DNA of 63,039 nt, counting the filler, from Globobulimina sp. (lineage: Eukaryota), in the NCBI GenBank assembly GCA_003354225.1. It is 28 parts of 28 records of this genome, joined end to end, with 100 filler letters (N's around TTAATTAATTAA, not from the genome) between each part and the next. Parts side by side here need not be neighbours in the genome. Positions count along the whole stretch, not along the records: positions 11,282 to 13,437 come from PIVH01008571.1; 27 more parts are not named here. One strand, 5' to 3'. The position numbers were made by a program, and so were the translations under genes. The notes beneath the pieces were generated by a model, which was not told where the DNA came from, did not search any database, and worked only from the letters and a program-made list of their open reading frames with translations. Below, one piece after another: positions 4,519 to 14,296 of the stretch (positions within the stretch are counted from its first letter, which is position 1; each line of letters begins with the position of its first letter).

Positions 4519-6669
4519 TCAATTGGAATCAACACGTTTACATTTACCAGCAGTGACATGCACAGTACAGCCATTTTTATGTCTGCTGTTTGAAATAATT
4601 GGACAAACCGCATTTGGTATTTGTTTAAAATATCTTCTATTCATAACTAAGATATTATTCCTATAAACTAAACAATATTTTTTATCCATTCTAAATTCAA
4701 ATGTCCATAAATCATTAATCGATATTTTATCCCCAATTTCAATTTCTTTCCCCTGCTTATCCGGTGTATACATTTTAATGTAACATTTCCCGTCTTTTAC
4801 TTCGATGCAATAAGCAAATGGATCACTTGTAACCGGATCAAATCCGTTCATATTTCCTAACGGCAGTTTGTAATAAATATTTCTTTTATGCAATTTTCTC
4901 GAATTTGGTGCATTTTGATGTATTTCAGATTGCAATTTAATTATTTTTTTATATCCATTTGTATTTAATTTATATGTATCAATATTCGATGTCATGAATC
5001 CTAAATAAACCGCACCTTTTCTTTTGTTGCTTTTATAAAACCTGTCAATTTTAAACGACACTGTAAACAATGAATATCTCTTCATATTTATAACATATTC
5101 AACTGCAACTTTACTAAGGCTCGACTCTTTTATCTTGACTTTATTCCTGTGCTTTAAATCGATTTTTGGCTCTGGATTATTGTTACATTTATATTGCGAC
5201 CATCGTAGTTCTAATTTATTTGTTGGAAATTGGTATTTATTGCTCCAAACCCCCCATTCTTTTGATTTGCGATATTTACTTCGAACACGGACAAAATATT
5301 TGCATCCACCGTCTAAAAATCGAATCATAAATGAAAAATCATCATAAATCTCTTTCGAATACAACCACGATTCGTCCTTCTCCTCATCGCTGTAATCATT
5401 GACAATTTCAACTTTATGTCTCCTGCTTTTTTTATTAACACTCTTCTTCTTTTTCTTTGCTTTATTACTGGTCATAAATGAGCCATGGCCGCCTTCTGCC
5501 TCTCCGCTCATTGATTTTTCATCGTCATTCATTTCTGCTTTTTCTTCAATAATAACTTTCCAACACACTTGAAATATAATTTTACATTTTTTCTTTGCTT
5601 CTTTGGCGTCTTTATATTTCGGACCAACTGTTGGCTGCACTGTTGGCTCGATCTTGGAAACTCGTGTTTGTAATTGGTATAAAACACTGTTTAATTTTAC
5701 TTTTTGAGCTTTTTTAACATCTGCTTTTTTTCTTGATTTCTTATATCAAAAACATGTGTTTTAAATCAAAACTTGTCCAATGATATAAAATTAAATAATT
5801 ATAACATACCTTGTGGGCCGAAGACAAAAAGGCAGGTTTTTTTAGATTTAATTTCTTAAAAATTGAATCATTGATATTCCAACAAATTGATATGGAATGA
5901 ACACTATTTAGCAGTAATTTGACATCAGTAATTATTGGCTGATCACAATTGTCAATATATATATGCGTAAATAAATCATTATTTATAGTTTTTAAATATT
6001 TGTCAATATCAAATTTTACCATTGCATTTGTCACCGGTTGTACTGGGCATTTATTGTTTGCGCATAACTCTTTTTCAAATTGAATAATCATTGTTTTTCT
6101 TTGTCTGAGTGATATCGTATTTGATGATGTAATTTCAGTGCATTTTAATTTCGCATCGTCGATTTTTTGTAAATGCCATTGCGTTGTTTCTATTTGATTT
6201 TGTAGCATTTCATATTTGTTTTTATTTAATTTATCTGTCATTAATGTTAATTCAGCTTTTTTATTGACAATATTTTTTAATAAAACATTATCAAAATAAT
6301 GATTAATTGATTTTAATTCAAGGTCACATTTATTTAAATCATTTATACCATTTTGAATGTCGCTAATTAAATTGGACACGTTTTCAAAACGTTTGTATAA
6401 TATATTCATTGCTTGCTGTTCTTCTGAGGATACAATTATTCTTTTGATATCCATATTGCTTTGTTTTTCGATGATTCTGTTGATATTTCGAATAAATCTA
6501 AATTCATCAATACTGTCTAATTCAAATTCACCAGCAATTTGATCGACAGCTTTCTCTGATTTAATAATATCATCAATGCTTTTATAGGCACCAATTATTT
6601 GTTTGATTGATTTGTGTGATAGCTTTATCTGTCGCAGAAATGGCTCAAAATCAATGCTTACTTGCTGCT
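4519..6669 (-). CDS. Coiled-coil + FN3 + SPRY/B30.2-like protein (TRIM-like C-terminus), 5'-partial; intron 5740-5809
   Basis: A 70-nt GT-AG intron joins the two ORFs in frame. FN3 motifs SISICW and LDGGCKYFVRVRS..WGVWS, followed by a beta-rich SPRY-like tail. Confidence 0.7.
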
Positions 6670-11049: not shown

Positions 11050-11444
11050 AAACATATTTTTTTGTTGAATCTAATATTTAATTTTTTAGTTTGTTTCATA
11101 ATGTTTGTTGTAGCGACACTCCTTGCACTTGCCACTTGAGTGGTGAATTTAGATTAATATAATACATAATTTACAAAATACNNNNNNNNNNNNNNNNNNN
11201 NNNNNNNNNNNNNNNNNNNNNNNNNTTAATTAATTAANNNNNNNNNNNNNNNNNNNNNNNNNNNNNNNNNNNNNNNNNNNNGTATTGTACATGTAGGTAA
11301 ATTTCATTTTCATAAATAAAACTTCTTATTTTGTTTTCAATGTAATATCGTTCGATTTTTATTATATATCATAACCCCATAAAATTAAACTACAGCTTCT
11401 CAAAGGTCAATCATTTTAGATTAAGTAGGTATAGGAGAAATCAA

Positions 11445-11816
11445 TCACTTTCTTACAAAACAAGCTCGTATAAACGAACTAAAGGAGTCGGTACAAATCA
11501 ATGACGGTTTTGTACTTTTATAACCAAACATCGCAGTGTCGCAATCCCAGTACAGATCTTTGTTTGTTATAACGAATGGTATGAATTGTCTTTTCTTTGG
11601 AATTCTGGTCTGCTTGTGCATTAGGTAAACATGCTGAGAATTCAGCCAACTTCTAACAAAACTCATCGTAACTTCAGTAAAAATTCGTTTCACATAGCGA
11701 TATAACACATGGGGAGTGGAGAAACTAGCAGATTTCGAAATATCATAATATACGGTTTTCAAAAATGATTCTATTTCCTGCTTTCTCACTTGAGACATGC
11801 CACGTTTTCTCGCCAT
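11445..11816 (-). CDS. Polinton-type retroviral-like (rve) integrase, N-terminal part only
   Basis: YYDISKSASFS...LY...VRSWLNSQHVYLMHK..R...WDCD...ICTDSFS matches the c-integrase pattern YYD...SF...V..WL..Q..Y..HK...W..D...ID.FS. The frame stops after the first catalytic Asp region. Confidence 0.8.
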   Translation of the reverse strand: MARKRGMSQVRKQEIESFLKTVYYDISKSASFSTPHVLYRYVKRIFTEVTMSFVRSWLNSQHVYLMHKQTRIPKKRQFIPFVITNKDLYWDCDTAMFGYKSTKPSLICTDSFSSFIRACFVRK

Positions 11817-12527: not shown

Positions 12528-13097
12528 ATGGATTTCGATTGGGAATCAAATACTAAACAATTCTTGAATTTTTTGAAATTCCTGGCCCAGTTATCAAATG
12601 CTGAGAAACGTTCATTTATCGACAATGCCACTAACAAACATGTGAATATGTTGGTTGCTTTCATTCGCCTTTGCAGTTCTGGAAAGGTATTATGTCAGGA
12701 CAAAAAACTTTTCAATCAGTTGGCAAAACATAGCGAAGTATTTTTTGCTCTGAAAATGGCAAAAAAACCAAAAATCAATACCGCTGAAAAAGTGCAAGAT
12801 TTCAAGCGAGTGCTTCATGATAAATACAGTCTCCTCAACTTGTTGGCTCCATATCTCGAACAAAGTTTGGTCGAGTATCAGCGAGGTGGACAACTTGGAA
12901 TTGATTCCACACTTTTACTACCCAAAATATTCGCCAGGAAACGCATTAGAATCAGAAAACCAAAAACTGCCTGTGGAGAGAAACAAGTAACTTGCTCAGG
13001 GGATCAAAACACTATCGGTGTCAAATCCCTGGATGAAAAGGAAATTAAAACTGAAGAGGAAGAGAAAAAATTCAATTCCATGATTGTCAAAACTTAA
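12528..13097 (+). CDS. Polinton/adintovirus small basic core-protein-like ORF
   Basis: LKFLAQLSNAEKRSFIDNATNKHVNMLVAFIRLCSSGKV...LAKH...LLNLLAP...YQRGG resembles the Polinton pattern 'L..L......R..IL..A....I......N...G.I...QxGG'. Confidence 0.6.
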   Translation: MDFDWESNTKQFLNFLKFLAQLSNAEKRSFIDNATNKHVNMLVAFIRLCSSGKVLCQDKKLFNQLAKHSEVFFALKMAKKPKINTAEKVQDFKRVLHDKYSLLNLLAPYLEQSLVEYQRGGQLGIDSTLLLPKIFARKRIRIRKPKTACGEKQVTCSGDQNTIGVKSLDEKEIKTEEEEKKFNSMIVKT

Positions 13098-13193
13098 TTA
13101 TACGATATTTTTGATTATCAATTGAGGTTAATTATACTATTTTACTGATTTAACTTTTTATTGCAATAAAAAAATTTATTTATAAAAAAATTT

Positions 13194-13267
13194 TGTTCCC
13201 GCCAAGAGTCGAACTTGGACCTTAGAGCGCACAAACTTCTCTACGCTCACCACTGATCCACGAGAAC
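13194..13267 (-). ncRNA. tRNA-like Pol III gene (74 nt) with an 11-nt anticodon loop
   Basis: GTTCTCG TG GATC AGTGGT GAGC G TAGAG AAGTTTGTGCG CTCTA AGGT CCAAG TTCGACT CTTGG CGGGAAC A. It has a 7-bp acceptor stem, 5-bp anticodon and T stems, A- and B-boxes, and a T7 run 4 nt after the acceptor stem. Confidence 0.8.
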
Positions 13268-14296
13268 AGATAAGAAAAATGGCAGAAAACTGGATTCAAG
13301 TATGGGTGAAAAGATATAATTTATTTAACAAACAAAACATCTATAATTCCTTAAATACTTTTCAATTACACTATTACAAAAAAATTGAAATATAATTCCA
13401 CAATTCCAATGTAAATTCCGACATTCCAAACTAACATNNNNNNNNNNNNNNNNNNNNNNNNNNNNNNNNNNNNNNNNNNNNTTAATTAATTAANNNNNNN
13501 NNNNNNNNNNNNNNNNNNNNNNNNNNNNNNNNNNNNNATTCGCAGTTGACCTAGTATTCGAGTCCTAGTATTCAAAGTTTAGAAGTGTAAGCCTAAAAAG
13601 TCAAATGATTTTCAGCATAATAACGTTACTCAATTGAATTGACTTAGAAGTGTTTTTTTGCCGTTAACTGATTTCTCTTTCGCTGTCGAGGCTTGGCAAT
13701 CTGATTAGTTTCTAAAATAGTTACTAAATAGTTGCAAAATCATTGCTGAATAACCTAGGTTTCTAATTAGTTACTAAATAATTACTAAATAGTTTCTTAG
13801 TATTTTAACCATTGTATCAAAAGTCAGTTATATAATCTCAGCTGGTATTATACATATTTTCATAATCATTGTCGTACGTGTTTTAGGATCCATAGGCTTT
13901 TGGTATTTTGGAACTTTGCGATTCTTCTGTCCCGCTGCACAATAGAAACGTTTCTCAAGGTTTTGAGCAGGTTTTTCTGTCAATCAGCAACGCATTTGTT
14001 ACCTTATAACGTTTTTGTCAGCCAGCAATTCATTTCTGTACAGACGCAAAGTTCTAAAAGTCCTGGATTCCTAAAAAACGACAATGATTATGAAAAGAAA
14101 CTGAGCGACAATGATTTTGACAATTAGTATAAATATAATCCCAAAACCCTTTTCGAACACAACAGTTGGGTGAAATTCTTAATTTGGGCAAACTGAACAT
14201 TCCCATACTAGCCACTACTGATGTTAGAGTCGCTGAGAAGTTTTTTCGCACTGACTTGGATTGTTTAAATAGGTTGTTTGTGATTAAGTTAGATTA

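Follow-up and report, generated by a model that had tools for sequence, protein, structure and literature searches.

The window analysed here is a stretch of 63,039 nucleotides, filler included, from the Globobulimina sp. assembly GCA_003354225.1, in which 28 unrelated contigs of about 2.15 kb each are chained with N44-TTAATTAATTAA-N44 linkers (a stop-codon linker). The contigs stand in order of length, neighbourhood across linkers is meaningless, and the locus described below belongs to one contig of 2156 nt, C8571 (11282..13437; contigs of the assembly are cited by such numbers), flanked in the window by DNA of unrelated contigs. On the minus strand, C8571 carries a 74-nt tRNA-shaped gene with an 11-nt anticodon loop (13194..13267). 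The gene scores 39.0 bits against the Rfam tRNA family RF00005 (gathering score 29, E 1.5e-6) and pairs 20 of its 21 stem positions. RF00005 is the sole Rfam match within the 901 bases from 12800 to 13700, Rfam at E values up to 1 returns no family besides tRNA and no VA family, and the same gene is the only tRNA that ARAGORN calls in the whole window. The acceptor stem (13267-13261/13201-13195, 7 of 7 pairs), the anticodon stem (13243-13239/13227-13223, 5 of 5) and the T stem (T arm 13218-13202, 5 of 5) are together paired at 17 of 17 positions, and the variable loop is 4 nt. The D arm (13258-13245) has a single mismatch in its stem (3 of 4 paired) and a short loop with one position deleted in the Rfam alignment. 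A preliminary description of this DNA had reported a 74-nt minus-strand cloverleaf with intact stems and an 11-nt loop; the cloverleaf and the loop (AAGTTTGTGCG, 13238-13228) are confirmed by the Rfam score and the ARAGORN call, and the intactness holds for the acceptor, anticodon and T stems but not for the D stem.

The B-box core (GTTCGACTC, 13206..13214, minus strand) is an exact match to its consensus. The A-box-like internal promoter (13250..13260, minus strand) departs at one position from the strict consensus, TRGYNNANNNG, and fits the relaxed consensus only, so that of the two boxes described earlier the B box stands as given and the A box does so in weakened form. Base 74 is followed by three A's and then by a T7 run (13184..13190, minus strand), the likely Pol III terminator that the same description had placed here; the total up to the terminator end is 84 nt, and a second T7 run begins at 13174. 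An AATAAA on the plus strand (13165..13170), 23 nt before the tRNA 3' end, is likely the poly(A) signal of a convergent gene, and signal and terminator are packed inside 25 nt.

As the criterion for canonical decoding we took a 7-nt loop with Y32, U33 and a purine at position 37, on a closed 5-bp stem. None of the eight contiguous 4-nt omissions from the loop yields such a configuration, and the two inner loop positions are unable to lengthen the anticodon stem, leaving four extra bases unpaired. A canonical decoding tRNA is thereby ruled out, as is a tRNA gene with a 37/38 intron, since no removal among the eight leaves a canonical loop. The same result excludes a mini-intron or a single clean insertion and implies that the loop drifted beyond one insertion while the stems held; the earlier judgement that the loop is unfit for normal decoding and is not a canonical intron is thus borne out. 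The predicted minimum-energy fold of the gene is a rod, at -24.9 kcal/mol against -14.9 kcal/mol for the cloverleaf; its outer helix spans about 13 bp and its inner helix about 9 bp, and most of the molecule is paired. Its fold z-score is only -1.65, and minimum-energy predictions often miss the fold of unmodified tRNAs.

Two assembly artefacts were considered and rejected. One public run (X1), possibly the assembly's own sample and so not independent evidence, holds 79% of the words of C8571. Its contig covers 13020-13293, from the interior of the neighbouring open reading frame to past the tRNA 5' end, with no gaps and five differing letters in 274 nt. It bridges the junction between gene and tRNA, which argues against a chimeric join, and contains no indel, which argues against a 4-nt assembly error in the loop; across 13097-13194, where an inspection of reads had been proposed, this contig indicates no chimera. 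Three of the five differences were identified: one outside the gene, one at the loop end and one in the D stem, where the run copy pairs at the position unpaired in the window copy. With two of the three located differences (five in all) inside the 74-nt gene, the comparison gives no sign of constraint on it. Runs X2 and X3, from the same sample, have next to no cover, which is no proof of absence, and were left out of the host assignment.

The convergent neighbour is a conserved small gene of a Maverick lineage encoding 189 amino acids (12528..13097, plus strand), with homologues on five further contigs. Its stop at 13097 lies 96 nt from the tRNA-shaped gene, in keeping with the convergent position about 100 bp past the gene reported before, and those 96 nt show neither a terminal repeat nor any sign of an element end. 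The protein has 7 relatives among 1.84 billion representatives, no Pfam match and nothing usable in the ESM Atlas; hhalign against the small gene of a classical Maverick contig returns a weak match (36.8%, E 3.6e-4). The preliminary description had called this a core-protein-like gene: it is a conserved element gene, and its identity as a core protein is only weakly supported. Farther away on the minus strand (11445..11816), tblastn to sibling integrases delineates the 5' part of a Maverick-type integrase gene that stops after about 118 codons. This integrase is common to 14 other contigs of the assembly, and its full-length sibling on C576 matches Pfam rve (E 1.4e-7) with a score that falls slightly short of the curated threshold. 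Both the truncated integrase and the small gene fit the attribution of the contig to a Polinton/adintovirus-like element.

The element copy is nonetheless truncated and its subfamily rearranged. The integrase truncation point coincides with the start of a segment (11291..11466) that C2771 carries, at 93% identity, on the opposite side of the small gene, marking a rearrangement junction; near 11463 the other integrase copies of run X1 have a different continuation, and the segment order is permuted too in C13494, which with C2771 is the closest sibling contig. The permuted segments of these three contigs suggest tandem or rearranged copies, or amplification chimeras. Genes for pPolB, capsid and ATPase and terminal inverted repeats are absent from the 2.2-kb C8571; a capsid-like gene is found on sibling C576. 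Upstream of the tRNA-shaped gene the contig ends after 170 nt, and that flank matches nothing else in the assembly, so the element boundary is unseen.

Several sibling contigs carry tRNA genes of their own. C7962 combines the integrase start and the small gene with a pair of Leu-type tRNA genes and a further, odd tRNA-shaped gene belonging to a four-copy family (C7962 2102-2175, C10128 424-497, C576 837-910, C24305 641-713). In its members the D stem, which bears a CCGG loop, and the anticodon stem are both 6 bp long, the latter through closure of a 9-nt loop (8 nt in C24305); all four copies are predicted to fold as cloverleaves. Their alignment pairs in 96 of 96 cells with two double changes, a value equalled by 26 of 500 shuffles, and as a comparison of four related sequences it offers modest evidence of covariation. 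The sequence of the 3' D strand, TAGTGC, recurs in the loop, which could therefore pair instead with the 5' strand of the D stem. The C576 copy lies within a 215-nt GT-AG intron of the capsid-like gene, and sibling capsid open reading frames match both sides of the intron and are continuous at that point, which places this copy inside an element. On C24305, the contig of one of the four copies, no element gene was seen. Of the close siblings C10128 and C7962, which both have the odd gene, only C7962 has the Leu-type pair preceding it, a difference that reads as tRNA genes being gained or lost as cargo among closely related elements.

Homology between this family and the window's tRNA-shaped gene was considered and rejected as unshown. 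On the family model the gene scores 28.1 bits, where members score about 100 and unrelated tRNAs up to 38.5, and nine ordinary tRNAs outscore it. Its identity to the family is 40-44/74, against up to 46/74 for unrelated tRNAs, the latter being the maximum over 42 tRNA sequences from fetched loci of the assembly. The two are alike in length and in the loop end GTGCG. As neither score nor identity exceeds that of unrelated tRNAs, we treat them as separate captures.

On element-linked contigs tRNA genes are sporadic and not significantly enriched: they occur on 2 of 58 contigs found by protein search, or 3 of 59 with C10128, versus 0 of 47 other contigs or loci (p 0.30 or 0.17). Two of the contigs, C5616 (864-1041) and C576 (5255-5432), share a 178-nt overlap at 98%, are probably one element split in two, and hence are not independent in such counts. 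There were no tRNA matches in the window's other 27 contigs or in 20 other loci, and no tRNA-like gene on 36 further contigs chosen by element-type proteins (Rfam was run on 18 of the 36, and some are perhaps not element DNA). Behind the homologous small gene of C2771, about 2 kb of other DNA contains no tRNA. A Leu(CAA) tRNA gene on C15369 (8-92) lies downstream of a C2H2-finger open reading frame whose homologue adjoins the integrase in C18966, and is probably a further tRNA gene that an element carries as cargo.

DNA and pattern searches of the assembly for a second copy of the window's gene each returned one match, the gene itself, copy counts being lower bounds in this fragmented 70-Mb assembly. 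The D-arm pattern gave 42 matches versus 38 for a control, and of 30 loci inspected only that of the window was tRNA-like. A further tRNA pattern recovered the gene, three members of the four-copy family and four others without an ARAGORN tRNA; as it was written knowing the family members, their recovery is circular. The family search of host tRNAs scored 63 of about 4169 candidates. tRNA-derived SINE heads and pseudo-tRNAs share an A/B-box module and a degenerate anticodon arm; unlike a SINE head, the gene is single-copy in these searches, has no body or tail, and is followed by its terminator directly after the acceptor stem, and on these grounds a SINE head was rejected. The high-copy SINE or dispersed pseudo-tRNA, the chimera and the 4-nt error that had been named as grounds for abandoning the preliminary description were thus not found.

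Beyond this genome, IMG/VR gave no exact match to a 20-base T-arm word of the gene, none to the D arm of the four-copy family and no locus for the integrase alignment. A looser acceptor plus B-box pattern matched 10 viral and at least 119 metagenome loci, with 96 distinct tRNAs among the 129; these were mostly Arg-type with the same acceptor, and the best identity to the gene among the matches listed was 55/74. As far as these comparisons extend, no close parent appears among the matches listed or the assembly tRNAs compared. Twenty-nine prokaryotic matches to the D-arm pattern of the four-copy family, at no more than 23.6 bits, were treated as chance. Since the searched collections are mostly prokaryotic, they are weak evidence of rarity. 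No homologue turned up in any searched set for the suggested check of conserved linkage and stem covariation, and with one copy and no relative there is no covariation by which selection on this RNA could be shown.

Viral tRNA genes and tRNA-like RNAs that do not decode are both already known. Murine gammaherpesvirus 68 (MHV68) encodes eight tRNA-like RNAs, each a Pol III product of a gene with its own A and B boxes; a 7-nt anticodon loop occurs in only three of them (PMC4810235). Its vtRNAs are described as not aminoacylated and followed by 3' miRNA hairpins, and a single vtRNA without its miRNAs gave a phenotype (PMC4337559). These vtRNAs, or TMERs, offer by analogy the closest working model: like a TMER, the gene has a tRNA-like 5' module with a non-canonical loop, a likeness of design and not of sequence. 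Unlike MHV68, it has no miRNA hairpin before the terminator, is one gene and not eight, and sits with a Maverick-type element instead of a herpesvirus, where it is known from sequence alone. tRNA genes are also reported from Polinton-like viruses (558 in one collection, PMC12220804), virophages (PMC6905037) and MELD viruses (PMC8502044), and the present case resembles them in that tRNA genes are sporadic cargo of midsize dsDNA viruses with an integrase. Host capture has been proposed as their origin in this literature. The portions of these sources considered here differ from our case in treating the viral tRNAs as decoding tRNAs for codon compensation, mention no enlarged loops, and take their examples from protist, fungal or environmental viruses. 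Our literature searches on Polintons, Mavericks, adintoviruses and polintoviruses with tRNA or Pol III, in a library with few subscription papers, listed none on odd-loop tRNA-like genes in Mavericks; supplementary tRNA tables, outside the scope of those searches, could contain such cases.

From the tRNA shape, the promoter and terminator motifs, the loop size and the physical link to an element gene, all of them observed, we tentatively infer a captured tRNA gene lying inside the element, a reading to which we would give slightly under an even chance. An animal-type Maverick/Polinton element would have taken up a tRNA gene of its host as cargo, in a tail-to-tail arrangement with one of its own genes. 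The internal A and B boxes would recruit host Pol III, the T7 run would end transcription, and RNase P and RNase Z would trim the transcript to an RNA of about 74-77 nt with an intact acceptor-T half and an 11-nt loop that could not sit in the decoding site. If active, this RNA would be plentiful, would take no part in decoding and would probably stay uncharged; it would bind host proteins that handle or sense tRNAs, in the mode thought to apply to MHV68 vtRNAs and not as a dsRNA decoy. Consistent with this mechanism, 20 of 21 pairs are kept though no close parent was found, the loop has changed by more than one insertion, the X1 contig bridges the locus with a copy that pairs in the D stem, poly(A) signal and terminator are closely packed, sibling elements carry tRNA genes as well (C7962, C10128, C576), and the four-copy family lends indirect support for selection. 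Against it stand the one copy, the unshown homology to the four-copy family, the unseen boundary, the truncated integrase and rearranged subfamily, the lack of significant enrichment, the differences inside the gene between window and run copies, and the rod fold where all four family copies fold as cloverleaves; the window copy may already be decaying. The preliminary claim of a tRNA-derived Pol III-type gene with a non-decoding loop beside Maverick/Polinton genes is therefore supported. Its further claim of a selected mimic is not, there being no homologue for covariation in any searched set, a truncated element and a rearranged subfamily, and neither is its proposal of a small-RNA precursor, with no hairpin between tRNA and terminator.

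An alternative is a functionless pseudo-tRNA, captured from an unsampled host and decaying with its truncated element copy, its stems still good as the decay is recent. We regard this as possible, though somewhat unlikely. The truncated integrase and permuted sibling contigs, the D-stem and A-box departures in the window copy, a minimum-energy fold that is not a cloverleaf, the missing second copy and the poorly sampled host tRNA set all speak for it. Decay sits less easily with a loop that no single 4-nt event restores while all 17 acceptor, anticodon and T pairs hold, and with a four-copy family that keeps its pairing through change in the odd-armed element genes. Rather improbable is another possibility, that the sequence belongs to the host, as a tRNA-like gene or a repeat derived from a tRNA, and only happens to border the element where an insertion or rearrangement joined the two. 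The unseen boundary would allow it, C2771 shows other DNA without a tRNA behind the small gene, one of the four family copies lies on a contig without a visible element gene, and the literature describes tRNA loci as hotspots of integration (PMC12220804, PMC6905037). Against this possibility, DNA and pattern searches find the sequence only once, it ends in a terminator of its own without a SINE body, the gap between it and the small gene shows no evident terminal repeat or element end, and the window's other 27 contigs and the 20 other loci have no tRNA match.

The loop itself bears on a different alternative, in which the gene encodes an atypical tRNA-Thr(UGU) that still works, its anticodon arm bulged and lengthened, and adds to the host pool. 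The C2-G71 pair usual in tRNA-Thr is absent from the gene, the four extra bases cannot pair, and ARAGORN with introns allowed reads His instead, and we consider a working tRNA-Thr quite improbable. In its favour, one of the five seven-base windows inside the loop fits Y-U-NNN-R-N and reads Thr(UGU), ARAGORN reads Thr(tgt), the four-copy family with its common loop end reads Thr(agt), and a yeast mitochondrial tRNA-Thr with an 8-nt loop is reported to decode (PMC3113583). Still another proposal, which includes the VA-RNA analogue of the preliminary description, has the RNA serve as a dsRNA decoy that engages PKR or Dicer, or as a tRNA-miRNA precursor of the kind seen in the MHV68 TMERs. A tRNA-gene origin is considered probable for VA RNAs, and VA-I requires an apical stem of about 20-22 bp stacked on a GGGU/ACCC tetrastem (PMC6599070). 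The gene shares with them the Pol III type-2 layout (B box exact, A box relaxed only) and a Polinton-related element, and its predicted rod pairs most of the molecule. Unlike a VA RNA, it lacks both the GGGU and the ACCC word, keeps a plain cloverleaf register at roughly half the length (84 nt to the terminator end), and in its predicted folds reaches no apical stack of at least 20 bp, the rod helices falling short of the length needed (PMC6599070). Rfam gives no VA match at E up to 1, the fold z-score is modest, and no hairpin lies between tRNA and terminator; on the structures predicted, the proposal is largely refuted and highly improbable. The gene bears a closer resemblance to a captured tRNA that does not decode than to adenovirus VA RNA.

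A broader version of the captured-tRNA reading, which we put forward as speculative and unlikely, is that this barely sampled Maverick lineage took tRNA genes from its hosts on two or more occasions and remodelled their anticodon arms, giving an 11-nt loop in the window's gene and 6-bp stems in both the D and the anticodon arm of the four-copy family, one copy of which lies in a capsid intron. The resulting Pol III RNAs would be selected not for decoding but for adjusting translation or stress sensing in the host, and would exemplify today the single-tRNA stage proposed as ancestral to adenovirus VA RNAs. This version rests mainly on the four-copy family, which is a better target for follow-up than the single window gene. 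If such RNAs are selected, Mavericks would have a regulatory RNA, and an intermediate on the proposed path from tRNA to VA RNA would be open to testing; if the window copy is decaying cargo, it is just one more example of tRNA capture.

C576 bears on the identity of the host. ESM Atlas, run on the C8926 homologue of its capsid-like gene, matches clusters at 0.97, 11% with DJR-like_dom and mostly from animal taxa. C576 also carries a Bcl-2 gene (4799-5272, E 9e-16), and Bcl-2-like matches occur on 19 contigs (C576 and 18 others) of an otherwise protist-looking assembly, which points to an animal component or animal viruses. The Bcl-2 family is animal-centred. Together with the Bcl-2 homologues described in adintoviruses (PMC8502044), this makes it likely, judging from sequence matches, that an animal host was co-sampled in the protist-like assembly. 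The integrase-bearing contigs C825 and C428 carry deoxynucleoside kinase, amino-acid transporter and Fe/Mn superoxide dismutase domains. Other odd tRNA-shaped genes in the assembly include one on C3129 (804-952) with a long insert in the anticodon arm and two short-armed genes on C18020 (166-236 and 780-846), with C2967 listed alongside.
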